Positions 12,886-62,636 of a DNA stretch of 64,000 nucleotides are shown here, piece by piece. The stretch is from an uncultured Candidatus Saccharibacteria bacterium. GTDB lineage: Bacteria; Patescibacteriota; Saccharimonadia; Saccharimonadales; CAZARM01. The notes under the pieces are model-generated. The model saw nothing but the letters and a program-made list of their open reading frames with translations, did not search any database and had not been told where the DNA came from. The position numbers and the translations under genes are program-made. The stretch spans positions 7,526-71,525 of the forward strand of contig CAYXCB010000001.1 in assembly GCA_964463635.1 (NCBI GenBank), written 5' to 3'. Each line of letters begins with the position of its first letter. Positions within the stretch are counted from its first letter, which is position 1.

Positions 12886-12945
12886 AGTTTTTATTTGATT
12901 AGCTTGAACTTACCTTACCATAAACTTAATGGATTTGCCCACCCT

Positions 12946-13356
12946 CTATAATCTGTTTTTAGCTTCTAATTCGTGGATGCGCTGGTGGTCCAGCCCGTAG
13001 TAGTGTGCGATTTCGTGCCAGAGGGTGTGTTTGATCTTACTTTTGAAATCTTCTAGATCGGCTGAAGCATAGAAAAGAGGCAGCTTGAACAGAGTAATCT
13101 TGTCAGGCAGGACCAAATTGTAGCTGGCGTTGCGCTTAGTCAGCGGAATCCCCTCGTACAAGCCAAATAATGTCTGGCTGCAATGCAGTTTAAGCTTTTG
13201 GCGCTGGGTTTCAGTCGGTTCGTCCTCGTAGGTGACTAAAACGTTGTTGAGCCGGGTAATATACTCTTCGGGCAACTCATCCATAGCAGCCGATATATAC
13301 TTGTCGAAGTCTTCGTCTGAGATACTTAACATGTTAAGTATTGTATCACATAGCAC
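12946..13356 (-). CDS. zincin-like metallopeptidase family protein (PF06262-like); true start may be the ATG at ~13332
   Basis: C-terminal HEIAHYYGLDH (HExxH...H) in a ~130-aa protein. The start region is overlapped by a 22-bp palindromic MarR-type box. Confidence 0.55.
   Translation of the reverse strand: MLCDTILNMLSISDEDFDKYISAAMDELPEEYITRLNNVLVTYEDEPTETQRQKLKLHCSQTLFGLYEGIPLTKRNASYNLVLPDKITLFKLPLFYASADLEDFKSKIKHTLWHEIAHYYGLDHQRIHELEAKNRL
13321..13343. promoter_or_regulatory. palindromic operator (MarR-box-like) GATACTTAACATGTTAAGTATTG overlapping the start of the peptidase gene
   Basis: Perfect 14-bp palindrome CTTAACATGTTAAG plus flanks; near-identical 22-nt site at 18375..18398 directly upstream of marR. 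Confidence 0.55.
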
Positions 13357-52399: not shown

Positions 52400-52418
52400 T
52401 GGAGGGCCGGGAGGGACT
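52400..52418. repeat. putative att repeat (imperfect copy of tRNA-Lys 3' end: TGGAGGGCC..GGGACT)
   Basis: Matches the 3' ~20 nt of tRNA-Lys at 61996..62018 (TGGAGGGCCCAGTGGGACT) with 3 mismatches; lies exactly where chromosomal-type genes give way to XRE/ImmA. Confidence 0.45.
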
Positions 52419-52592
52419 TACTGCTTTAGATGAATTTTGGAGGTCTACCAAGGGAGTAGTTTATATATTTATATTGAGGAACTAATGCGATGGAGACAGC
52501 TATTGGATAACAGATACCGGCAAAATCAGCTTAACAAGCGTCGCAGTAGCGTTGTTTATTCCTAGTAGTGGTTACATACGCAGATTAAGAGG

Positions 52593-52820
52593 TCAGTGGT
52601 TACTGCCTTTTTCCTTGTCTTGATATATGTCATACACAAGATTAGCGAGGTCTTTAGCGTCCCTCTTCATTCTCAGCCTAGTTCTGGCTTGCTCTAAAGC
52701 GTCCTTTGCCAGCAAATCTAACGTAGTTATTACTTCCAGAATCTCGTCATCACTCATTCCGGTAGCGTTAGCACCGAGTATTTCCCGTGCTTCTTTAATA
52801 GAAACTATTGGATTCATCAT
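52593..52820 (-). CDS. hypothetical small protein
   Basis: 75-aa ORF downstream of ImmA on the same strand. Confidence 0.4.
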   Translation of the reverse strand: MMNPIVSIKEAREILGANATGMSDDEILEVITTLDLLAKDALEQARTRLRMKRDAKDLANLVYDIYQDKEKGSNH

Positions 52821-52828
52821 TCAAACGC

Positions 52829-53350
52829 CTAGAGTAATTTTATTAGTCCACTGTTTGTAATTTGAATCCACAGTGCGTCTTTACTTACCCCATACCGCTT
52901 CGCAAGTTCCTCAATATCTTTGATTCCAGCCTTTATATCAGCTCGTAGAAACTTAGTCGGCATTAACAGATATGCCGCAAAGTGGTCGGCTTCTTGCTCA
53001 TCAAAACTCTTGTAGCCGTGATGAAGGCTAGAGTTACCCATAACGTGTCCGAAGTAGAGATGGCCTATTTCGTGTGCAACCGAGAATCGTTGCCGTACAA
53101 CAGCCCTATTCTTATTATAAAGAATTACTAGTTGACCATTCCGATTAACAAGCATTGCGTCACGCTCCTTACCAGTGATACTTTCATCGGCTGGAACGAT
53201 TACGGCACCAAACTCATCTTTAATCAGCTTGTATATCTCATTGAGCCTGACAGGAGCTTGAGTAATTTTAGCGGATTTTAATAGTGCAAGGGTCTTATGC
53301 CTTGCTTCTGTGAACTTGGCTTCGTTAGTTGTCTGATTGCTTTCGTCCAT
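52829..53350 (-). CDS. ImmA/IrrE-family metallo-endopeptidase
   Basis: HEIGHLYFGH (HExxH) in a ~170-aa protein overlapping an upstream XRE repressor gene. Confidence 0.75.
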   Translation of the reverse strand: MDESNQTTNEAKFTEARHKTLALLKSAKITQAPVRLNEIYKLIKDEFGAVIVPADESITGKERDAMLVNRNGQLVILYNKNRAVVRQRFSVAHEIGHLYFGHVMGNSSLHHGYKSFDEQEADHFAAYLLMPTKFLRADIKAGIKDIEELAKRYGVSKDALWIQITNSGLIKLL

Positions 53351-53696
53351 CTTGGTTCTTTGACAGTTTCAACGCGTCAATAAACGATTCAACTCTTTTG
53401 ACGTCGTCTTGGTCTAGGTGTTCATCTGCTCTTAGAGCAATTTGTACGCTTGGCTGTGGGCTTGTTGTCGTGTCGCCTTTTATAAAGTAATTTACGTCAC
53501 GGTGAAGAAGCCTAGCTATCTCCTCCAAGTCGCTTATTTGAACTCTACGTTCACCAGCTTCAATGAGGGATATGGCAGTAGGCGACTTGTAGTCCAGCTT
53601 TTGAGCTAGTTCAGTCTGTGTTAGGCCCTCGGCTTCACGAGCTTTCTTGATTCTTGACCCAATCTGAGCGTACTTCTTTACTTCGTTGTTTTCCAT
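53325..53696 (-). CDS. XRE-family helix-turn-helix transcriptional regulator
   Basis: LTQTELAQKLDYKSPTAISLIEAGER HTH_3 motif. Confidence 0.8.
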   Translation of the reverse strand: MENNEVKKYAQIGSRIKKAREAEGLTQTELAQKLDYKSPTAISLIEAGERRVQISDLEEIARLLHRDVNYFIKGDTTTSPQPSVQIALRADEHLDQDDVKRVESFIDALKLSKNQDGRKQSDN

Positions 53697-53729
53697 ATTG
53701 ATATATTACATTTATCAGAAAGTATTGAC

Positions 53730-53765
53730 AAGCATTTATCGTTTTGATAAATTGATAATTACAAA
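53730..53765 (+). promoter_or_regulatory. candidate promoter (TTGACA-N17-TAAATT) with TTGATAA direct repeats in divergent XRE / DUF2188-TIR region
   Basis: Consensus -35 and near-consensus -10 with 17-nt spacer ahead of the DUF2188-TIR-membrane operon; operator-like repeats overlap. Confidence 0.4.
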
Positions 53766-53805
53766 CTAAACTCTTGAGGGTAAAACAAGGGGGAAAGGAC
53801 ACAAA

Positions 53806-54027
53806 ATGGCACGAAAAGTTTTTCACGTAGTACCTTACGGCACAAACTGGCAGGTCAAGCACAATGGTCAGGTACTTAGTAACCACACCTATAAGGCAAA
53901 CGCTATCAGCTCAGGGCAACTAGTAGCTAAAGCGAACCAGCCAAGCCAACTCGTAGTACATCGGGCTGATGGAACTATTGAGTTTGAGTACACATACGGT
54001 AACGACCCCTACCCACCAGTTGGGTAG
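53806..54027 (+). CDS. DUF2188-domain protein
   Basis: 73 aa; HVVPYGTNWQVKHNG...YGNDPYPP matches the DUF2188 pattern; GGGGAAAGG Shine-Dalgarno. Confidence 0.6.
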   Translation: MARKVFHVVPYGTNWQVKHNGQVLSNHTYKANAISSGQLVAKANQPSQLVVHRADGTIEFEYTYGNDPYPPVG

Positions 54028-54063
54028 GTCGTTCTTGCATTTAAGGGTAAAATATGGAGAGTT

Positions 54064-54642
54064 ATGAGTTTAGCGGACGAATTATATAGAGCTATGTACG
54101 GCCAGGAGCCAACTGTACCTAAGCCAATTAAGTGGAGCGGTTTCCTGCCGCCAGCGAAAGCTCAGCCTAAGCCAGGTTTTGTGCGAATAGCAAAACCGCA
54201 GCCACGCCCTTTCGTCAGAATTGCCAAGCCGAAGGTGTTTGTTAGCTTTGATTACGAGAATGACCGTCTTTATAAACAGGCATTGGATATGTGGGACGCC
54301 AATAAGCGTTTTGATTTTAGCTTTAAGAGTAATACACCCCAAGAAATCCAGTCCGAAAGCGTAGAAAGGGTAAAAGCAGTTCTGACAACAAAAGTAAAAG
54401 CGTCCAGTCACGTTGTAGTATTGGTTGGTAAATACGCCAACGAGCTGCACAGCGATAGTCAAAAAATTGGTTTTCGTAATTGGATAAACTTTGAAGTTTA
54501 CCAAGCACGTTATTATAAGAAGAAGGTTGTTGTTGTAATGCTAAGCCCGTACAACACACTACCTGAATGGTTGCGTGGTTCAGGTGCAACCCTAGTTAAC
54601 AGCTTCAACGAAAAAGAAATAATACAGGCCCTAAGTAAGTAG
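54064..54642 (+). CDS. TIR-like domain protein (ThsB / MTH538 DUF1863-like) with N-terminal Pro/Lys-rich tandem repeat
   Basis: KVFVSFDYEND beta-A motif (compare ThsB RVFFSFHYQD), central VVVLVG strand, and NWINFEV W-x3-E motif (putative catalytic Glu); N-terminal FVRIAKPQPRP / FVRIAKPK repeat. Confidence 0.6.
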   Translation: MSLADELYRAMYGQEPTVPKPIKWSGFLPPAKAQPKPGFVRIAKPQPRPFVRIAKPKVFVSFDYENDRLYKQALDMWDANKRFDFSFKSNTPQEIQSESVERVKAVLTTKVKASSHVVVLVGKYANELHSDSQKIGFRNWINFEVYQARYYKKKVVVVMLSPYNTLPEWLRGSGATLVNSFNEKEIIQALSK

Positions 54643-54647
54643 GCAAT

Positions 54648-55277
54648 ATGGCAAAACTAAGCGAAGATACAAAACTTGAAGTTCTGAGTGACCATTATAA
54701 GGAAACCGTTAACGATTTTAAGAAAACAGGCAAAAGTCGTGACCTAAACTTTTTTGCGGTACTTATATTCCTAGGTGTGATGACGTTCCAGTTCGTTTCT
54801 CCACACCAGTCACAAAGCATACTTACACAAGTAATTAACTCCCGCTTGGATATAGATGCAGCTCTTAGCATTAACCTGCTTGGTTCACTGATTTGGCTTG
54901 CATTGCTTTTCGCTGCGATTCGCTATTTTCAAGCCGTCATTAACCTTGAAAAACAGTACAACTACAGCCACGACCTTGAAGACTTATTAGCTAAAAGCTA
55001 TGACAATAAAGCGTTTACCCGTGAAGGCAAATCTTACCTGAAAGATTATCCTGTATTTTCAAAATGGGTACATTTTGTCTATCGTAAGCTGTTCCCGCTA
55101 CTCTTGGTTATTGCATTAACTGTAAAAATACTTGGAGAGTGGTTAGCCAATAAAACAAATGCGTTACCTCTAGCACTAGACTCTGTCATTTACGGAGCAC
55201 TGTTAGTGTCAATAGTCCTCTATGTCTACTCGTTGCAAAAGACTGAAAAGCACACAGAAAAAGACGTTAAAAAATAG
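54648..55277 (+). CDS. 4-TM membrane protein, candidate effector partner of the TIR protein
   Basis: Starts 5 nt after the TIR stop; four predicted TM helices with a ~60-aa cytoplasmic loop; no Macro/SIR2/SLOG motif recognisable. Confidence 0.5.
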   Translation: MAKLSEDTKLEVLSDHYKETVNDFKKTGKSRDLNFFAVLIFLGVMTFQFVSPHQSQSILTQVINSRLDIDAALSINLLGSLIWLALLFAAIRYFQAVINLEKQYNYSHDLEDLLAKSYDNKAFTREGKSYLKDYPVFSKWVHFVYRKLFPLLLVIALTVKILGEWLANKTNALPLALDSVIYGALLVSIVLYVYSLQKTEKHTEKDVKK

Positions 55278-55288
55278 CCCGACTTTAT

Positions 55289-55834
55289 TTATAGATTTGT
55301 TTCGTTGGAGAGCTTTATTCTGACTTTTTCAGTCATTGTATTGGTGCTGACATAGCCAAGTGCGTCTACATCTGGGTCGTAGAGTTCAATCATATCTAGG
55401 TCATTGCGTGGAAATACCCTCGCACCTTTTATTACTTTGCCGTCAATTAGCGACTGTTTTAATTCGCCGTATTGCTCTGGTTCAAGGTAGAAATCAACAT
55501 CTCCAACGTGGTTGCGATAAGGGTCTGGCTTACGAATATATAAATGAGTGTAGGTAGTTTCTGGGACATCGTCTTGAGCGGGAATAACAATAGGTTCGTG
55601 TAGAGTAAAGTATTTTTGATTTGGGTCATCAGATGGTTCGGTAAGTTCTTTACGAATTGCTAAAAGCCTTTCGTATTCGTCGTCGTAATGACAAAACACG
55701 CCCATATTGCCAGCATTAGGCAAGTATTTATCAAACGACTGTTTGCAGAGCTTATAACAAGCAAAGTGAATGTACTTTGTGGCTTCAACTAACTGGTCAT
55801 TGTTTTCTATGGGGCTAAATCTATAAAGTTTCAT
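55289..55834 (-). CDS. hypothetical protein
   Basis: 181-aa ORF, last gene of the minus-strand redox operon; no motif recognised. Confidence 0.4.
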   Translation of the reverse strand: MKLYRFSPIENNDQLVEATKYIHFACYKLCKQSFDKYLPNAGNMGVFCHYDDEYERLLAIRKELTEPSDDPNQKYFTLHEPIVIPAQDDVPETTYTHLYIRKPDPYRNHVGDVDFYLEPEQYGELKQSLIDGKVIKGARVFPRNDLDMIELYDPDVDALGYVSTNTMTEKVRIKLSNETNL

Positions 55835-55836
55835 TG

Positions 55837-56415
55837 CTAAAATCCTGGGTCGTTGAAGTAATCAATACTAAATATGTCAGAAGCCTCCGCAAAGTTATTA
55901 CGCTCCCACTGCATAAAGGGCTTGGGATTGCCTTTGGGTGATATTTCTTCGTTATAGAACTTGGGATTAACTTTAGCTTTGGCGTATCCACCAATTACCA
56001 TTAAGTGGTTGCCGCCTACATCTTTCGGTAAACCTATAATCTTGTATTCCACCCAACCCAAAGCGTCTTTTAGGACTGGTCCGTGTTCTGAAAAGTCCAA
56101 GTCTAAGCTATCGTTAAACTCCTCAATTTTATCTTTGCCGGAGTTGTAACCCGAATACTTTTGGCCGAGTTTCCATACTAGCTCAAGTTGCTCTCGGTGA
56201 GGAACAGATACAGTAAAGGCTTTAGCTGTTTTCAGGCTTTCGGCAGTAATCCAAGGTTTATAGACAGCAATCATCACCATACTAGGTTCGGTACTTATTG
56301 AGGTGATGTTATTGATTGGAATAATGTTTTGGCGACCATCTTCTGAAACAGTGCCAATTAGCACCACCAATCTAGGAGCAAGAATCCTGTGTATTTTGTC
56401 TGTTACTTCAATCAT
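55837..56415 (-). CDS. flavin reductase-like (FMN-binding split-barrel) protein
   Basis: Flavin_Reduct-like pattern (LVVLIGTVSEDGRQNIIPI...S.EPSMV..V). Confidence 0.55.
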   Translation of the reverse strand: MIEVTDKIHRILAPRLVVLIGTVSEDGRQNIIPINNITSISTEPSMVMIAVYKPWITAESLKTAKAFTVSVPHREQLELVWKLGQKYSGYNSGKDKIEEFNDSLDLDFSEHGPVLKDALGWVEYKIIGLPKDVGGNHLMVIGGYAKAKVNPKFYNEEISPKGNPKPFMQWERNNFAEASDIFSIDYFNDPGF

Positions 56416-56426
56416 AACTACTCTTC

Positions 56427-57167
56427 TTACCCTAGAACTTTTAAGCTCATACCGCCATCAATTACCAAAACTTCACCACATACGGCGTCATTCTTTGCAA
56501 GGAAAACTATACCGTCTGCAATTTCACTTGGCTCAATCCAACGGTTAATGAGATGTCCTGCGGCTTGTTTGGCTTTATATTCATCGTCCATATTGCCCCA
56601 CATTGGCGTCAGTGTTCTACCGGGTGCAACTGAATTTATGAGTATCTCTGGTGCAAGTGCTTTAGCTAGATTTTTCATATATGAATCAAGTGCCGCTTTC
56701 ATAGATGAGTAGGCAATGGCGTCTGGTCGTCCGTGGCCCAACTTTCCGTGGATTGATGAGACGAACACAATCTTGCCATTTTTCATCAACTTACGGGCTT
56801 CATTTGTGATACGGACTTGTGCAAGGAAATTAGTCTCAAAGACATTCTGAAAAGCATCAAGGCTTTCGGGTCTATCGTCTTCGTCAAATAAACCCGCACT
56901 GTTTACCAAAATATCAATTGCAGAAAACTTTTCCTTTATCTTTGTGAACATAATCTCAACTTCTTCCGGCTTTGAAATGTTCGCCTGTACAGTCAACGTT
57001 TCTACCGAGTTTTTAGCAGCTAGATTGGCCACTTCCTCTGCGGCCTTAACATCGTGGGAGTAGTTAATAATAACATTGGCACCTTCCTTAGCCATTGCCT
57101 CTACTGTGGCTCGGCCTATACCTTTAGAACCACCTGTTACTAATACTGTTTTGCCTTGCAATTTCAT
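56427..57167 (-). CDS. SDR-family oxidoreductase
   Basis: TGGSKGIG Rossmann motif and catalytic YSSMK (YxxxK). Confidence 0.8.
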   Translation of the reverse strand: MKLQGKTVLVTGGSKGIGRATVEAMAKEGANVIINYSHDVKAAEEVANLAAKNSVETLTVQANISKPEEVEIMFTKIKEKFSAIDILVNSAGLFDEDDRPESLDAFQNVFETNFLAQVRITNEARKLMKNGKIVFVSSIHGKLGHGRPDAIAYSSMKAALDSYMKNLAKALAPEILINSVAPGRTLTPMWGNMDDEYKAKQAAGHLINRWIEPSEIADGIVFLAKNDAVCGEVLVIDGGMSLKVLG

Positions 57168-57170
57168 AGA

Positions 57171-57644
57171 CTATCCTTTCGCTCCACCATTCCACTCAAG
57201 TTTATACTTCTGACCTGACGTGCCGCCAAAGCGACCAAACACATACCAGTTAGTTACGCTAATCTTGTAGAACTGATGACCCTCATCATTTGAGGCTTCT
57301 TCAACAATATCATCTGTTATTTTCAGGCGAGCCTTTAGACATTCTGCTGCCGTATTTTGCTCATCACCTACTTCAAGCAATTCTGCCTTGCCCTCAAAGT
57401 AAACACCAACAACAGGGTCGCCTAGCTCATATTTATCAATGATATTTCCAGCTACGTTTGAATTGTTAGCAATTTCTTGGCTATGTCGTCTTGATTTTAA
57501 TGAACGGAAATACAGACTGAGGCTATCGTCATACGCAAAGTGGACTTCACAAACCCAAGGAGCATTATCGCTAACCGTTGCTAACGACATATGTATCGTC
57601 TTCTCAATAAACTCACGCACAACTTGTTCTATATCAACACTCAT
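57171..57644 (-). CDS. pyridoxamine 5'-phosphate oxidase-like FMN-binding protein
   Basis: 157-aa PNPOx-like split barrel (MSLATVSDNAPWVCEVHFAYD pattern). Confidence 0.55.
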   Translation of the reverse strand: MSVDIEQVVREFIEKTIHMSLATVSDNAPWVCEVHFAYDDSLSLYFRSLKSRRHSQEIANNSNVAGNIIDKYELGDPVVGVYFEGKAELLEVGDEQNTAAECLKARLKITDDIVEEASNDEGHQFYKISVTNWYVFGRFGGTSGQKYKLEWNGGAKG

Positions 57645-58600
57645 TTATTCACTCTCGTTGGAAATTCGTTTTTTGTTGCGCTAACCATATTATCTGTCCA
57701 TAGGACTACCGAGTTGTGCATAGATTCATAGGTAGTCCACGCATAAGCAGGAGCAGCCCAGACATTACCATTAAACTTCGTAAACTCGTTGGGTTTTCCC
57801 TCAAAGCCGTAGCCAAATAAATCTTCCTTAGCCACCATACCAAGCACCTGTTCTTGGTTAAACAAACCGTGTGCAATATCTACTAAGATAGCCGACTTCT
57901 TCATTGATTTAATGTGTTCTTCTGTAATCAACGCCAGCGTTTCAGGATTTTTAGCTGCTGTCGGAAAGATGACATCTGCCGTTTCTAGTAATTGCTCAAG
58001 TGATACTTCTTCGTAAGCGTCATTCGTTGAAGACCTTGACCAGTAAACTACATTCATATCAAGCCCCTTACAGGCTTCGGCAATCGCACTACCGATATGC
58101 CCTAAACCGATAATTCCAGCCGTCTTGCCCTTGAGCTGTACGCCACGATACTTCATAAAATCTTTGTCAAAATCCAGCGGGTAGTTATCTTTAATTAGTC
58201 TAGGAGTTTGCCGAGCTAAGTTAAACATCATCATAACCGCCCACTCTGCAACGGCTTGCGTAGAGAAGTTTACGATTTGGCAGATTGGTATATTACGCTC
58301 GTTAGCAACATCTTGCTCAACCCATTCAAAGCCGGTAGAAGCTATTAGAATGCCTTTGAGATTTGGAATATCTTTGTAGTCTGCGCTGCTTAGTTTCCAG
58401 CTAACATAATCGGGATTCAAGCACAGCAACCGTTCTTCGTCACCTTCAAATAATGCTTTGCAGTCGCTAATCGGTTCAATCTCTTTTGTAATTACCAATT
58501 CAAGTCCACTGTCTTTCAACTTACTTAAAAGCTCGTCGGTGATTAGTTCGTCCCAAAGCGGGTCAAATATAAATGCTTTCATACCGTAACTATACAACAT
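57641..58600 (-). CDS. D-isomer-specific 2-hydroxyacid dehydrogenase family protein
   Basis: NAD-binding GKTAGIIGLGHIGSAIA, catalytic-domain fold length 319 aa. Confidence 0.8.
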   Translation of the reverse strand: MLYSYGMKAFIFDPLWDELITDELLSKLKDSGLELVITKEIEPISDCKALFEGDEERLLCLNPDYVSWKLSSADYKDIPNLKGILIASTGFEWVEQDVANERNIPICQIVNFSTQAVAEWAVMMMFNLARQTPRLIKDNYPLDFDKDFMKYRGVQLKGKTAGIIGLGHIGSAIAEACKGLDMNVVYWSRSSTNDAYEEVSLEQLLETADVIFPTAAKNPETLALITEEHIKSMKKSAILVDIAHGLFNQEQVLGMVAKEDLFGYGFEGKPNEFTKFNGNVWAAPAYAWTTYESMHNSVVLWTDNMVSATKNEFPTRVNK

Positions 58601-58768
58601 TTACCTCTTAAAATCTGTCTTTTTAGTGGACACTTTTCTTAAAATTACTTTGCGAACACCAGTATTTACTAAGGGGTCGCACAAACACCGCTCAGAGAGG
58701 CTGAGAATGGCTTAAAACCTGTATTCAGGCTCGCATTGACTACTGTTTCTTATTAGACTGCCGACAAT

Positions 58769-58987
58769 ATGTCAAACAACCTAGAACAAGCAGTCAAAAA
58801 CCGAAAAGAAATGGCAGAAATCAAACGTAAATTGCTGACTGGCGAGATTAGCCGAGACGAAGCAAAACGACTAGCACAACCAATAATTAATTTAGCAAAT
58901 AAGCATTGTGTGGAAATAGCAAAGAAACACGGCAAGAAACCATATAAGTTAAACTTCACTAGTTTAATGAGAGATAGTTACGGATGA
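58769..58987 (+). CDS. small hypothetical protein
   Basis: 72-aa ORF on the integrated element, stop overlaps the next small ORF start (ATGA). Confidence 0.35.
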   Translation: MSNNLEQAVKNRKEMAEIKRKLLTGEISRDEAKRLAQPIINLANKHCVEIAKKHGKKPYKLNFTSLMRDSYG

Positions 58988-59130
58988 AGAAACAAAAAAC
59001 TGAATCGTGGCGAAGATTTGTATTGAATTATGACGACGCAAAAATTACCTTTCCTGACGGTACAGTCAAGCTACCGAAAGGACTAACAGAAAAGTCCAAA
59101 AGGCTCGCAATAAAGCGAAAAAAGCACTAG
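58984..59130 (+). CDS. small hypothetical basic protein (48 aa), not in ORF track
   Basis: Translationally coupled (ATGA overlap) to the upstream ORF. Confidence 0.3.
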   Translation: MKKQKTESWRRFVLNYDDAKITFPDGTVKLPKGLTEKSKRLAIKRKKH

Positions 59131-59187
59131 TTTTTATTATCAATAAAAATTAAAAGAACAGCGACGAACAGTGGGCTTTTTAGCTTT

Positions 59188-60042
59188 TTGCGTATAATTA
59201 CGTTTATGACTGGCCGAGAAAAAATACTTATTACAATAAACCTGATTGACCACTATTATCAGCAATCGTTATCAGGCAATACAGTTAAGTTTGATTCCAA
59301 TGATTTAGACAATGCCGGTATCCGACTTGAAGAGCAAAACAACATTTTAGACGCCCTCAAAGAAGACTACGAATGCATTGAGTACTCATACACAAAGCCT
59401 TATTCAGATTTAACAGATGATGACAATCTTCCTAGTACTCTCGTTCAGCACTTACATATGAAATCAGGTGCAGTAGACGTAAAATATTACTATCTAGATT
59501 ATAAAATAAGGTCGCAGAAAGATTTCATCATTACTATTCTTGATAAGTTTGATGAGGTTAAGAATAAAGCAAAAGCAGACGACTTAGAAAAATATCAGTA
59601 TCATACAACTGCGCTGTCAGATAAACCACTTGGTACACCTATAGTGGATAAAAATTCCTCAGAAATTATATATGTGGCCTTTAGGAATAATGTTCTCATT
59701 ATTGGTCTTAGGCCTGGTATGTCCGTTCCCTTAGGTAAGCCACTTAGATACGACAGTCCACCTTACAACTTTATGCAATATATCCTCAAGAACCCGAACA
59801 GACCCATAAGCGTACACGAGATACAAGAAAAGGTTGAAGGCTGCAAAACAAAAACCGACCTGAGTGAACTTGTTAGAAATTGCCATTTTAACAAAGAGTT
59901 AAAGAGAATATTCTTTGAAAGAACAACACAAAAGACTATACGCTTTACTCCTTGGAGAGAGTTAAATGGCGAGCAACTGGAATGGTTCATTAACTGGATA
60001 GAAACCACCCGTGAGCAAATCGCAACAAACCGTGAAGAATAA
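59188..60042 (+). CDS. hypothetical protein
   Basis: 284-aa ORF; followed by an intrinsic terminator. Confidence 0.45.
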   Translation: MRIITFMTGREKILITINLIDHYYQQSLSGNTVKFDSNDLDNAGIRLEEQNNILDALKEDYECIEYSYTKPYSDLTDDDNLPSTLVQHLHMKSGAVDVKYYYLDYKIRSQKDFIITILDKFDEVKNKAKADDLEKYQYHTTALSDKPLGTPIVDKNSSEIIYVAFRNNVLIIGLRPGMSVPLGKPLRYDSPPYNFMQYILKNPNRPISVHEIQEKVEGCKTKTDLSELVRNCHFNKELKRIFFERTTQKTIRFTPWRELNGEQLEWFINWIETTREQIATNREE

Positions 60043-60082
60043 CCATTCATAGAAGTTAGAATCAGTAATAATCGTGTAATTA

Positions 60083-60109
60083 AGGAGCTTTATAACAGCT
60101 CCTTTTTTC
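60083..60109 (+). terminator. intrinsic terminator
   Basis: AGGAGCT-TTATAAC-AGCTCCT stem followed by TTTTTT. Confidence 0.65.
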
Positions 60110-60322
60110 TTATCTATAGTCTCTCGTATGTCAAACGAGAACAAAGCCAAATCAATAAAGAAAGGAGACGTAGAAGAAGCGTTTGAAACGCTGGCACAGT
60201 TCCTGTTTGAGCAATACAAGAAAAAGAAGCAAGCAGAAGAATACGAAGACGAGCAAGATATATAAACTTGCAGGTCTTAATTAAACATTACTTAATATAG
60301 AATGCTCAAGGAGGGCAAAACT

Positions 60323-60469
60323 ATGAAAAAGAAGACAGATTGGCGTCCGTACTATTTATTCAAATACACGGCGGAAAAAAGAGTTTGTTATCTGTATTAC
60401 AGAAACATACGAACAAAAGAAGTTAAGAAAATTGGAAAGATAGAGGTACAAAAAGATGTTAAGAACTAA
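60323..60469 (+). CDS. small basic hypothetical protein (48 aa) overlapping the recombinase start; possible excisionase/directionality factor
   Basis: AAGGAGG Shine-Dalgarno 7 nt upstream of ATG; stop overlaps the recombinase ATG. Confidence 0.3.
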   Translation: MKKKTDWRPYYLFKYTAEKRVCYLYYRNIRTKEVKKIGKIEVQKDVKN

Positions 60470-62093
60470 AGCAATCGCACTATGTCGTGTATCAACTAAG
60501 GGTCAAATGCTAGACGGCAACCTTGAACCACAAAAGGAGAATGTAGAGAAAGCAGCTAATATTTTAGATACAGACCTAGTAAAAGTCTGGGCATTAGCCG
60601 TATCTAGTCGTAAGGGTAAAAACGTAAAGCGTAAAGATTTGCACGAAATGCGTGACTACTGCAAAAGATTCAAATCAGTTAAGTACCTAATAATAGACGA
60701 GCCAGACAGATTTATGCGCTCAATAAAAGAGTATTACTGGTGGAAAGTGGAATTTGAGCTTGTTGGTGTACAGATACGCTTTTCAAACAATCCAACTGCT
60801 GACCCCGAAGATGATAGGGTTGTATTTGATGAGCTGATAGATGTCTATCGTGCTGAGCAAAGTAACAATGAACGAATTAAGAAAACTCCAGGTAAAATGA
60901 TGGCAAAGATTCGGGCTGGCTACTATCCAAGTAATCCGCACACTGGCTATAAGAAGTCTGATATACCAGGTTTGCACGAACCAGATGAGCCAAACTGGTC
61001 AGCTATGCGAAGTACGTTCAAGGAAATGGTATCTGGTGAACTAACAGTTAGCGAGGGTCTTAAAGAAGTCACCAAACGTGGACTACGCACTAAGAACTAT
61101 GGACCGAAAGCTGTAGGTGGCAAAACAATTGATATGTTCCGCTGGAAAGCCCTTATGTGCGACCCGTACTATTACGGATTCCTTAAACTTGGCGATTGGT
61201 CAGAGGAAAATGCGAACGGTTTACATAAGACAATGATTACAAAGGAGGAACACGAAATACTTGTAGCGTTGGCAAAGAATAAGGGTAAACGATTTATAGT
61301 GAACCGAAACAATCCTGAATTCCCGTTCTCAAATGAGGCGGAATGTACGAGGTGTGTATTTTCTGATAATCCTTACCCTAGGTTAGTTGGCTACTGGCAA
61401 AATAATGGAGCAAAGAAAAACAGACTTAGGTATAGGCGTTACAGATGCAGAGACTGCAATCTTGGAGTGAGGCAAGAGGCACTCCACGAAGGCATAACGG
61501 AGGAGCTATCACAGCTCCTCTTGTCTTTAGAACAGAAAGAAAAGCTAAAGGAACACGCCCGAAAGATATGGCGGTCATACGAAAAAGTAAGGATTGAACA
61601 GGCTAGAATAGCCTTAGGACGACTTACAATACTGAAAGAAAAGAAGAACAAGTTCATTGAGAGCTTAGTAGCCAACCCAAACCTTGCAGAAGACATTCAA
61701 GAATCAATTGAACAGATTAAAAGTGATATTGTTGTAGCCGAACAGGAAGCGTCAGAAGCTCAAGACTTTGAAAAGGACTTCATAGAGTTTATAGGCTTTG
61801 CTTTTGACTTTATGGACAACTTAAAGGGTAAATGGTGGGAGTTAGACAAGGACACTATGAAAATATGTAAACAAGTGTTATTTCCGTGCGGAATCCAGCT
61901 ACTCCCAAATAAAAAAGTTTATATACCTAAAATTAGCCTAGTTTACGGGGGTGATGATAACAAAAAAGCCCCCGAAGGGGCTGATTTTACTAGACTGGAG
62001 GGCCCAGTGGGACTCGAACCCACGACACTCTGCTTAAGAGGCAGATGCTCTAACCAACTGAGCTATGGGCCCATATTCCAATTGTACATGTAG
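60456..62093 (+). CDS. large serine recombinase (resolvase domain + recombinase domain + zinc ribbon + coiled coil)
   Basis: N-terminal IALCRVSTKGQ (catalytic Ser), DEPDRFMRS, recombinase-domain block, CTRC...CRDC zinc ribbon, C-terminal coiled coil; last ~30 codons overlap tRNA-Lys on the opposite strand. Confidence 0.8.
   Translation: MLRTKAIALCRVSTKGQMLDGNLEPQKENVEKAANILDTDLVKVWALAVSSRKGKNVKRKDLHEMRDYCKRFKSVKYLIIDEPDRFMRSIKEYYWWKVEFELVGVQIRFSNNPTADPEDDRVVFDELIDVYRAEQSNNERIKKTPGKMMAKIRAGYYPSNPHTGYKKSDIPGLHEPDEPNWSAMRSTFKEMVSGELTVSEGLKEVTKRGLRTKNYGPKAVGGKTIDMFRWKALMCDPYYYGFLKLGDWSEENANGLHKTMITKEEHEILVALAKNKGKRFIVNRNNPEFPFSNEAECTRCVFSDNPYPRLVGYWQNNGAKKNRLRYRRYRCRDCNLGVRQEALHEGITEELSQLLLSLEQKEKLKEHARKIWRSYEKVRIEQARIALGRLTILKEKKNKFIESLVANPNLAEDIQESIEQIKSDIVVAEQEASEAQDFEKDFIEFIGFAFDFMDNLKGKWWELDKDTMKICKQVLFPCGIQLLPNKKVYIPKISLVYGGDDNKKAPEGADFTRLEGPVGLEPTTLCLRGRCSNQLSYGPIFQLYM
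61996..62072 (-). tRNA. tRNA-Lys (anticodon CUU)
   Basis: GGGCCCATAGCTCAGTTGGTTAGAGCATCTGCCTCTTAAGCAGAGTGTCGTGGGTTCGAGTCCCACTGGGCCCTCCA: full cloverleaf, anticodon loop CTCTTAA, encoded CCA. Confidence 0.8.
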
Positions 62094-62202
62094 GGTTCAA
62101 ATCCTGGGAACCCCGACCCAAAGATAATTTTCTGCTGAAAATTTCTTTCGGCATGCCTCACGCCGTCGCGTTCCGGCCTTGCAAAAGTCCACAGGACTTT
62201 CT

Positions 62203-62249
62203 CACCCTGCTTAAGAGGCAGGTGCTCTAACCAGCTGAGCTACTGGCCC
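62203..62249 (-). pseudogene. truncated tRNA-Lys(CUU)-like 5' half (acceptor 5' strand, D-arm, anticodon arm only)
   Basis: GGGCCAGTAGCTCAGCTGGTTAGAGCACCTGCCTCTTAAGCAGGGTG: ~85% identical to the intact tRNA-Lys 5' half; no T-arm or 3' acceptor follows. Confidence 0.5.
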
Positions 62250-62326
62250 TCGTCGGAACCGACGGTCGGCTTCCAGAAAACAAATGTATTTGTTTTCCTT
62301 CCATCCTCTAGTCGCTTCCTCTTCTC

Positions 62327-62361
62327 AATTTTGTAAACAGCTTCGCTTGGTTTACAAAATT
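62327..62361. repeat. inverted repeat AATTTTGTAAAC-N11-GTTTACAAAATT
   Basis: Perfect 12-bp arms; followed by two direct copies of GTAAATGCAAC at 62384 and 62411. Confidence 0.6.
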
Positions 62362-62461
62362 GGTGAGCTGCGGGTAAATGCAACGGGGGGAACTTTAGCA
62401 GATTACCCCTGTAAATGCAACCTAGGTTAGTGTATCCTAGTAATAGTAACGAGGACTCATT

Positions 62462-62581
62462 ATGAACCCCGATCAGCCCGATCCAGATATGCCGCCAGTA
62501 CCGCCGCCGGCTTCACCCGACCCAGCTCCGGATCAAGATCCGGTTGCGCCCGTTCCGCCTCCTGTTACCAATAAGTTATAG
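62462..62581 (+). CDS. small proline-rich hypothetical peptide (39 aa), not in ORF track
   Basis: GAGGA Shine-Dalgarno 6 nt upstream of ATG; precedes the DUF5684 gene. Confidence 0.25.
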   Translation: MNPDQPDPDMPPVPPPASPDPAPDQDPVAPVPPPVTNKL

Positions 62582-62636
62582 ATTTATTAATTAAAGTCGT
62601 ATAATTCCTACATAATCAACAATTAAGGAGTTCTAT

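Follow-up and report, generated by a model that had tools for sequence, protein, structure and literature searches.

How a mobile element comes to occupy a tRNA gene, and whose tRNA is left intact beside it, are the questions raised by the transfer RNA (tRNA) gene tRNA-Lys(CTT) in a Candidatus Saccharibacteria chromosome. We analysed a stretch of 64,000 nucleotides (nt) of this chromosome, referred to here as the window, in which the intact tRNA gene lies within a segment of low guanine-plus-cytosine (GC) content and is overlapped by the gene for a large serine recombinase. The segment was recognised as an island of ~9.8 kb (window positions 52419..62202) within the tRNA-Lys(CTT) locus, and it probably belongs to a family whose members are mobilised by a divergent large serine recombinase, with attachment sites at the T-arm and 3' end of tRNA and transfer-messenger RNA (tmRNA) genes. 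For this particular island, we infer a non-canonical event, either at its arrival or in a later rearrangement. New here are the serine-recombinase family that targets tRNA and tmRNA genes, the replacement of the host tRNA, and an undescribed module of the attachment arm with its miniature derivatives.

Borders of the island and origin of the resident tRNA

The island is bounded by both halves of a native tRNA-Lys(CTT) gene, its last 19-20 nt on the left and its first 47 nt on the right (Table 1). The native tRNA-Lys(CTT) of genus-level relatives (loci L018, L082 and L085) has the acceptor stem GGGCCAG/CTGGCCC, the T-stem GAGGG/CCCTC and the leader CCGACGA, and a metagenome scan with the leader and the start of the tRNA as the query gave 13 further loci. 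The right-hand remnant is identical to the native tRNA of L088 and L094 over all 47 nt and is preceded by the native CCGACGA leader, which is also present in L018, L082 and L086-L098; Rfam reports a degenerate tRNA at 62174..62249 with 26.9 bits. The left-hand remnant (52400..52418) agrees with the 3' end of the resident, intact tRNA at 16 of 19 positions, for which dinucleotide-preserving shuffles gave ~0.01 chance matches per window, and agrees better with native-type tRNA-Lys(CTT) of relatives, at 18 of 19 positions (<=0.01 chance matches expected) and at 18 of 20 against the tRNA of L088 and L094, leaving one mismatch against the native type and three against the resident tRNA. The repeat statistics and the better native-type match bear out the preliminary description of this locus, in which the repeat at 52400 was taken as a genuine tRNA 3' remnant marking the left border beside the chromosomal DUF1801 gene. 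About 10 nt of the native tRNA, from the 5' side of the T-arm, are absent, and the gene survives only as the two remnants. The GC content is 0.36-0.43 over about 52.0-62.0 kb versus 0.47-0.49 in both flanks, in agreement with the AT-richer interior noted earlier. The flanking genes are, by Pfam, those for a sortase and DUF1801 on the left and for DUF5684, DHFR and FolC on the right.

The resident tRNA differs from the native one at nine positions, eight of which make four compensated stem pairs (numbered over 77 nt, 6-68, 7-67, 28-44 and 51-65). The acceptor, D and T arms follow the Lys(TTT) type, with the non-native acceptor strand GGGCCCA and D-loop AGTTGG in the 5' part, and the anticodon arm follows the CTT type (TCTGC/GCAGA; CCTGC/GCAGG in the host allele); apart from this arm, the sequence is exactly that of the Lys(TTT) tRNAs beside the closest relatives of the recombinase, in L003 and L012. 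A score of 74 bits, compensated stems, an encoded CCA and a terminator give it the look of a functional tRNA, and the KKAPEGA peptide segment encoded over the terminator is kept across the recombinase clade. The intact tRNA is another allele, which co-varies internally and moves with the island, so that the host tRNA has been replaced and not rebuilt; the resident tRNA was brought in whole by the island, and it presumably supplies the lost function of the native tRNA. The earlier view of the intact tRNA as the host gene rebuilt by the element thus fails, as the resident allele is foreign throughout and the host 5' part has been displaced to 62203..62249. Since the native gene is split into two remnants and the intact tRNA is foreign, the right border is 62202/62203. 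Of the borders proposed before, the left one stands and the right one moves there from 62072/62093, the copy at 62203..62249 having been overlooked.

The layout of Islander-type islands is present in the window, with the tRNA at 61996..62072, a displaced fragment in direct orientation at 52400..52419 and the recombinase gene inside, at 60456..62093. Regeneration of the target from the host 5' part and the element 3' part is found in relatives such as L018 and not in the window, where the native tRNA was destroyed without reconstruction, a feature of tRNA-dependent lysogeny. The spacer upstream of the resident tRNA has no match in the fetched loci, IMG/VR viral contigs or JGI metagenomes and no Rfam family. 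On its plus strand, at 62093-62125, the spacer holds GGGTTCAAATCCTGGGAACCCCGACCCA, which looks like part of another tRNA, a T-arm with the acceptor 3' strand, in opposite orientation, and the L012 spacer has a similar motif, GTTCCC(G)AGGATTTG, inverted relative to the tRNA. It was also observed that the same leader and tRNA body carry the anticodon TTT in L090, L095 and L096 and CTT in L088, L094 and the window remnant. Because both anticodons occur on one leader and body, tRNA-Lys with the native leader seems to switch isoacceptor identity in evolution.

The occupancy of this site varies among related genomes (Table 1). In L018, the native leader runs straight into the tRNA, and the layout of L090 and L096 is that of the window minus 9.7 kb. 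The expectation that relatives would show a tRNA-Lys next to the DUF1801 gene was borne out at the level of related genomes, by L090 and L096, which have a 160-nt cassette in between and a tRNA of TTT, not CTT, anticodon. Relatives do not all carry the same 9.7 kb: L098 is empty, and other loci are differently filled. The remnants, the GC drop and the variable site in relatives together support the integration of an island at the tRNA-Lys(CTT) locus. The collections contained no genome of the same species, and exact look-ups of the DUF1801 protein and the recombinase returned no other contig; a look-up of the DUF5684 protein returned one 1.4-kb contig only, ending just outside the tRNA remnant, and the best DUF1801 homologues are <=73% identical. 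A right flank identical to that of the window is present in SRR6868923.

The recombinase and its family at tRNA and tmRNA genes

The open reading frame (ORF) of the recombinase, at the tRNA-proximal end of the island, covers the whole tRNA in antisense, over 98 nt or ~32 codons, which matches the overlap with the minus-strand tRNA-Lys(CTT) described before. An alignment of 34 homologues indicated that R11-V12-S13-T14 and C297, C300, C331 and C334 are invariant. The sequence is divergent, with Pfam finding Resolvase only, the catalytic domain of TP901-1 as the sole sequence match in the PDB (E=5e-4), and merely about 14-15% identity to solved integrases; the Pfam Recombinase and Zn-ribbon models have no match in the window protein and are present in more distant homologues. 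The AlphaFold model, with a mean predicted local distance difference test (pLDDT) score of 81, consists of a catalytic domain, a long helix, a mixed domain, a beta-ribbon (295-340) and coiled-coil helices (358-436). The best Foldseek matches were full-length serine integrase-att complexes, Bxb1 and PhiC31 (E 1e-15 to 1e-8 over 490-540 columns), and the catalytic domain also matched those of Sin, gamma-delta resolvase and TP901-1. By its catalytic domain, zinc ribbon and coiled coil, the window protein has the fold of a large serine integrase; the RVST motif, the four cysteines and the full-length Foldseek matches uphold the earlier identification of a genuine large serine recombinase. The predicted activity is attP x attB recombination, to which the repeats at element ends, the L011 junction and the miniature elements point.

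Residues 502-545, encoded by the terminator hairpin of the tRNA and the antisense tRNA, have pLDDT values <50 and are predicted to be disordered. The C-terminal peptide '...EGPVGLEPTTPCLKGRCSNQLSYGP' owes its conservation across the clade solely to that of the tRNA, and beyond 'EGPVGL' it is entirely different in L011, which has an attP-like junction and no tRNA there. The functional recombinase probably ends near residue 500, and the tRNA overlap is a junction-dependent read-through, not a functional domain.

A scan of one genome per species gave 80 loci with relatives of the recombinase (30-76% identity), nearly all in Candidatus Saccharibacteria/Saccharimonadales and a few in other Patescibacteria. 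A complete antisense tRNA or tmRNA is present at the recombinase 3' end in 60 of the 73 informative loci, defined by a full-length recombinase gene and sequence beyond it, and the targets are Lys (21), Gly (17), Arg (9), Glu (5), tmRNA (4), Val (3) and Ala (1); the other 13 loci mostly have tmRNA 3' ends, partial tRNA 3' ends or a contig that stops inside the tRNA. In at least 10 loci, a second copy of the tRNA segment between the T-loop and CCA (the last 17-22 nt) is present on the same strand, 2.4-9.9 kb upstream of the recombinase. These repeats are perfect or near-perfect in L003, L018, L019, L044, L050 and L081 (perfect over 21 nt in L018 and L019) and degenerate yet in register in L004, L005, L016 and L020, and the window repeat, 9.6 kb from the tRNA, has the geometry of the family. 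In L066 and L070, a partial tRNA 3' end at the recombinase and an intact tRNA 1.5-2.6 kb beyond represent tandem accretion. Taken together, a large and coherent serine-recombinase family that inserts into tRNA and tmRNA genes appears to exist and is apparently undescribed; the literature searched, which was covered in part, holds no description of a serine-recombinase family dedicated to tRNA or tmRNA genes or of such Saccharibacteria elements.

Some minor features of the family were also observed. In distant clades (31-37% identity), the target is the tmRNA (ssrA) 3' end (L042:11505-11890, L045:11484-11870, L054:11493-11870 and L059:11505-11895), and further distant-clade recombinases lie at this end in L046, L048, L051 and L058. 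Ahead of the complete tRNA, at a distance of 70-150 nt, stubs of tRNA 5' ends (9-20 nt) followed by module-free spacers occur in L012:10897-10976, L024:11618-11735 and L031:1910-2021; L024 and L031 additionally have an inverted copy of the D-arm, and L064:7898-7919 has an inverted copy of tRNA positions 56-77. These stubs and inverted copies may be scars of earlier rearrangements.

The mechanism that we propose for the family, drawn from many loci, would be as follows. The recombinase gene would end at the attachment site, which comprises the T-arm and 3' end of the target gene (tRNA or tmRNA), and the right arm would copy the last ~20 nt of the target and supply the terminator within the last codons of the recombinase. 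A crossover in the T-loop would then rebuild the tRNA, with the displaced native 3' end becoming the direct repeat at the far end, and the left arm would be a structured module of ~87 nt in several elements and another hairpin-rich arm elsewhere.

The use of tRNA or tmRNA genes by serine integrases was predicted in 14 of 297 cases by Mageeney et al., compared with 44.5% for tyrosine integrases, and was termed 'not reported previously', with a call for experimental proof (PMC7192596); the earlier remark that serine recombinases at tRNA 3' ends are uncommon therefore concurs with the literature. The family resembles tRNA/tmRNA islands (Islander/TIGER; sublocation classes of Williams 2002) in the targeted segment from the T-loop to the 3' end, the integrase gene beside the tRNA, the 3' end given by the element, the displaced fragment that marks the far border and tandem accretion. 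It differs from them in being a whole serine-recombinase family, whereas tyrosine integrases are found there almost exclusively, and in that the recombinase 3' end overlaps the attachment site and contains the tRNA terminator. With the large serine integrases of PhiC31, Bxb1, TP901-1, A118/LI and SPbeta (SprA), it shares the multi-domain fold, an attP beside the gene and, at the predicted attP, a short inverted GGGAC...GTCCC core. Unlike those integrases, which use protein-coding or intergenic sites, it has RNA-gene targets, ~20 nt on one side of the crossover that are identical between attP and attB, and a co-varying module of ~87 nt as the other attP arm in several elements.

If the mechanism proposed for the family holds, integration into tRNA and tmRNA genes with gene repair, so far deemed a hallmark of tyrosine integrases, would have evolved independently in a serine-recombinase family that is spread over Saccharibacteria and other Patescibacteria. 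How a serine integrase copes with ~20 nt that are identical in one arm of attP and one of attB, and how direction is still controlled, is a mechanistic puzzle. Because these ultra-small genomes have few other types of mobile element, the family may be a main route by which defence and metabolic genes are gained. The predicted attP/attB pairs, which are short, conserved and present in many uncultured bacteria, would be suited to genetic tools for Saccharibacteria.

Junctions of the window copy and competing explanations

At the left end of related elements, the usual order is a '...GACCTCCA' box, a terminator, a tRNA-like block (block C), the module and the repeat. The left end of the window island has the box, whose upstream context is closely like that of L003 by eye, then just 19 nt to the remnant, and the module is absent. 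At 52438-52480 (-) and at the homologous sites of L003, L011 and L019, we also observed an AT-rich, promoter-like stretch followed by '...CTTGGTNGACCTCCA', with a terminator next in the other elements; the box region could correspond to a tiny transcript that contains a CCUCC motif or, as a fossil of an earlier accretion, to a tRNA 3' end. On the right, the native 5' remnant and a shortened module are joined through GGGTG microhomology, and a unique spacer of ~90 nt and the resident tRNA follow. On the element side, both breakpoints adjoin the tRNA-like block that is usually found ahead of the module.

A single conservative crossover is excluded, because ~10 nt of the T-arm are missing and the left junction has neither the module nor the inverted GTCCC motif. 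One such crossover at tRNA positions 46/47 or 57/58 or at the shared AAGTCC was tried, and none yields a complete native tRNA. Tandem integration with excision, an aberrant excision that captured upstream host DNA, integration into the junction of a resident miniature element, and '5'-replacing' miniature elements were partial fits that still needed an extra deletion. The most economical reading would be that an element of the Lys(TTT) clade, already with a complete tRNA, entered the paralogous CTT gene and was inserted, or later rearranged, at the internal tRNA-like block. Because the module is truncated and misplaced, the window copy is rearranged and may no longer be mobile.

Several points weigh against this reading and against the wider one of a family-type island. 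We infer, and do not observe, the role of the recombinase in this particular insertion. Its closest relatives are all at Lys(TTT) genes, not CTT. The view spans the 64-kb window, and another tRNA-Lys(CTT) elsewhere in the genome would not show. A strict empty site or an excised circle is lacking for this island, because no same-species genome was found, and the L011 junction could be that of a tandem array and not a free attP.

It is also conceivable, although we regard it as unlikely, that the recombinase did not make the present junctions, and that the island, the tRNA and the spacer entered on a donor chromosome fragment by homologous or microhomology recombination, e.g., after DNA uptake, or were reshuffled after a normal integration, leaving a fixed relic. 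The position of both element-side breakpoints at the tRNA-like block beside the module, the GGGTG microhomology that accounts for the right junction, the left junction without the module, the loss of ~10 nt of the native tRNA and the unique spacer are all in keeping with such an event. However, the left remnant starts at the canonical T-loop crossover of the family, which would be a coincidence if the event were illegitimate, and the island has an intact recombinase ORF and conserved core genes.

Classical reconstitution, in which the resident tRNA would be the host gene, the island would stop at the tRNA, and 62203..62249 would be an unrelated older scar, appears improbable. It is the rule of the family, as in L018 and L019, where the 21-nt repeats are perfect and the native leader is straight upstream of the tRNA, and the left repeat of the window begins at the T-loop position used in these two loci. 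In the window, however, the native 5' part matches that of relatives exactly, has the native leader and is found 130 nt upstream of the resident tRNA; the 5' part of the resident tRNA is non-native, and its acceptor and T stems co-vary internally; and the left remnant agrees with the type of the upstream remnant and not with the resident tRNA.

An origin from two native tandem tRNA-Lys genes, with canonical integration into the second and decay of the first, is highly improbable. Tandem tRNA genes are common in these genomes (e.g., L050 and L061), and the closest relatives of the recombinase target tRNAs with a body of the resident type. However, the displaced 3' remnant on the left is of the first (native CTT) type and not of the resident type, neither such a pair nor a CTT tRNA with the GGGCCCA body occurs in about 20 related tRNA-Lys(CTT) loci, and the 'first' gene is fused to an element-derived module. 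That there is no mobile element at all, only a chance repeat in ordinary chromosome, has nothing in its favour beyond the lack of a same-species comparison, is contradicted by the repeat statistics, the GC drop, the variable site occupancy and the family-wide pattern, and can practically be dismissed.

In the reading that we prefer, i.e., a family element that came with its own complete tRNA, the island has replaced the host tRNA by its own and could be hard to lose. A comparable case is the tRNA-dependent lysogeny of mycobacteriophages, in which a tyrosine integrase disrupts a host tRNA and a phage tRNA complements it, with Lys(TTT) in Fionnbharth (Guerrero-Bustamante and Hatfull 2024; PMC10865867). 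The window island resembles these mycobacteriophages in the disrupted host tRNA and the tRNA carried by the element, Fionnbharth likewise involving tRNA-Lys. It differs in that the lysogeny belongs to phages with tyrosine integrases and was shown experimentally, whereas here the island is non-phage, the recombinase is of the serine type, and the tRNA dependence is deduced; moreover, the window layout looks like a departure from the usual reconstitution of the family and not its standard mode.

The three-hairpin module, miniature cassettes and cargo

The module, of ~87 nt with three hairpins, lies at the left arm of several elements from different clades, others having different hairpin-rich left arms. 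It abuts the left repeat in L019 and L053, and in L022, L047 and L078, where a complete tRNA lies farther downstream, it comes after a 5' tRNA stub. The recombinase 3' end of L011 adjoins no more of a tRNA than positions 57-77, which are preceded by the module and a block that matches positions 43-54, and this junction is either an attP or that of a tandem array. Always, the module adjoins tRNA fragments, after position ~54 at the left ends of elements or after stubs ending near 21-24 or 46. The window copy gave a weak nhmmer match (62176..62204), and its first hairpin has compensatory changes versus L011 and L019.

An alignment of 12 instances indicated that 25 of the 31 predicted pairs in the module keep pairing via changes on both sides. 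The paired cells amounted to 96%, versus 30-42% with the partners slid, and the observed values were reached in 0 of 500 shuffles. One G-U pair, present in 11 of the 12 sequences, points to folding of the tRNA-sense strand, as far as this can be predicted from the alignment, and no matching family was found in Rfam. Where the 3' end of the module is joined to the tRNA, there is an inverted GGGAC-N8/9-GTCCC, a plausible candidate for the serine-recombinase core. A known ribozyme, a group II intron end and an IS200/IS605-type miniature element were considered for the module on the basis of motifs, and no test supported them.

Cassettes of 160-200 nt that consist of a terminator, a tRNA-like block and the module, with no recombinase, are present in L031:6959-7260 (at tRNA-Ser), L090/L096, L093 and L095, the last with a variant insert. 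Each lies between an intact tRNA and a repeat of the tRNA 3' end that matches at 18-20 of 20 positions, and they could be non-autonomous elements or deletion scars. The cassettes share the lack of a recombinase with miniature inverted-repeat transposable element (MITE)-like elements and satellite islands, and, unlike them, are defined by serine-recombinase attachment arms and not by transposase ends.

The module, which lies between a block that matches the variable loop and T-stem of the target and the final ~20 nt of the tRNA, is a candidate new RNA or DNA motif. That it is a functional nucleic-acid part, either a structured attP arm or an element RNA that acts in site choice, synapsis or directionality, is an idea that we put forward only tentatively and hold to be rather doubtful. 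If it is functional, the choice of the integrase family among tRNA and tmRNA genes would be helped by a structured, retargetable cassette, and the recombinase-less miniature elements would be mobilised in trans.

With regard to the cargo, the genes in 52829-55277 suggest, by their sequence matches, a compact candidate anti-phage module with CapP/CapH-like regulators, in which no ThsA-like partner was seen. The pair of ImmA and XRE genes described before as a switch of the element is present; its best scores are of the CapH/CapP type, which suggests that it regulates the adjacent TIR defence genes and may not be an element switch. Pfam (ThsB_TIR, flavin reductase, short-chain dehydrogenase, PNPOx and 2-hydroxyacid dehydrogenase) likewise agreed with the TIR module and redox operon reported for the interior. 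Because homologues of single operon genes, 61-83% identical, are scattered in the unrelated recombinase loci L053, L011 and L075, the cargo is a mosaic. One of the small proteins upstream of the recombinase may be the directionality factor. The small ORF o72 is a core gene, with a homologue 1.0-1.5 kb ahead of the recombinase gene in each of the related elements L002, L011, L012 and L024, and o284 and o55 are not conserved. Among the 16 ORFs examined, five of which are of unknown function, Pfam and PHROGs gave no phage structural or lysis genes, relaxase, oriT or type IV secretion genes, and a prophage and a conjugative or mobilisable element were ruled out, as these defining genes were not found.

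Table 1. Coordinates of window features, occupancy of the site in related loci, and copies of the three-hairpin module
Feature	Position or locus	Strand	Remarks
Native tRNA-Lys(CTT) 3' remnant, left border	52400..52419	-	T-loop 3' half to CCA; DUF1801 start codon 21 nt away
Conserved box '...GGTAGACCTCCA', like a degenerate tRNA 3' end	52438..52449	-	Homologous boxes in L003, L011, L018, L019
ImmA-type metallopeptidase	52829..53350	-	Pfam Peptidase_M78; PADLOC capP E=7e-27
XRE HTH protein	53325..53696	-	Pfam HTH_3; PADLOC capH E=2e-12
DUF2188	53806..54027	+	Pfam; PADLOC PDC-S16 E=4e-17
ThsB-like TIR protein	54064..54642	+	Pfam ThsB_TIR; PADLOC ThsB E=4e-12
209-aa membrane protein	54648..55277	+	
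Cargo operon: 181-aa unknown, flavin reductase, short-chain dehydrogenase, PNPOx-like, D-2-hydroxyacid dehydrogenase	55289..58600	-	Pfam
o72	58769..58987	+	phrog_10302, function unknown
o284	59188..60042	+	One weak match only: L020, 34% over 62 aa
o55	60302..60469	+	No matches in related elements
Large serine recombinase, 545-aa ORF	60456..62093	+	Pfam Resolvase E=3.6e-11; phrog_95 integrase E=4e-22
Intrinsic terminator of resident tRNA	61967..61982	-	Hairpin AGCCCCTTCGGGGGCT then T run, inside recombinase KKAPEGA codons
Intact resident tRNA-Lys(CTT)	61996..62072	-	ARAGORN; Rfam tRNA 74.3 bits
Spacer, shortened module to resident tRNA	62073..62164	-	Weak promoter-like TTCCCA-N18-TACAAT ending 9 nt before tRNA
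Shortened module copy	62165..62204	-	First hairpin, GCAAGG linker, last-hairpin remnant; fused to native tRNA remnant
Native tRNA-Lys(CTT) 5' remnant (first 47 nt), right border	62203..62249	-	89% identity to resident tRNA (repeat family D2)
Native leader and promoter region of chromosomal tRNA-Lys gene, outside island	62250..62412	-	ACAGGGGTAATCTGCTAAAGT motif and leader kept in L018, L082, L085
Related site with 7-kb element	L018		FolD ... tRNA-Lys(CTT) ... DHFR-FolC context as in window; recombinase only 44% identical
Related sites with unrelated genes	L082, L085		3-4 kb of unrelated genes between tRNA and DUF1801
Related sites with cassette	L090, L096		tRNA-Lys (TTT anticodon, same leader and body), 160-nt cassette, perfect 20-nt repeat, DUF1801 ~35 nt later
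Empty site	L098		folD directly after tRNA
Module copies	L011:11562-11647, L019:369-454, L053:398-483, L078:7980-8066, L047:4184-4270, L022:8903-8988		
Module copies, continued	L031:7121-7207, L050:12702-12786, L093:1259-1344, L090:1926-2007, L094:360-443		

Other observations were made on individual loci. L011 lies on a 149-kb contig (DATHJH010000018.1) and encodes relatives of the window recombinase (67% identity) and of the window flavin reductase (83% identity); it is labelled as a Candidatus Limnocylindria (Chloroflexota) metagenome-assembled genome, which could reflect misbinning or an occurrence across phyla. The same locus holds, at 12928-13036, a LOOT RNA (Rfam RF03000, 66 bits). In the right flank of the window island, a proline-rich short ORF (MNPDQPDPDMPPVPPPASPDPAPDQDPVAPVPPPVTNKL) was found at 62463-62582 (+), between the tRNA leader and the DUF5684 gene.

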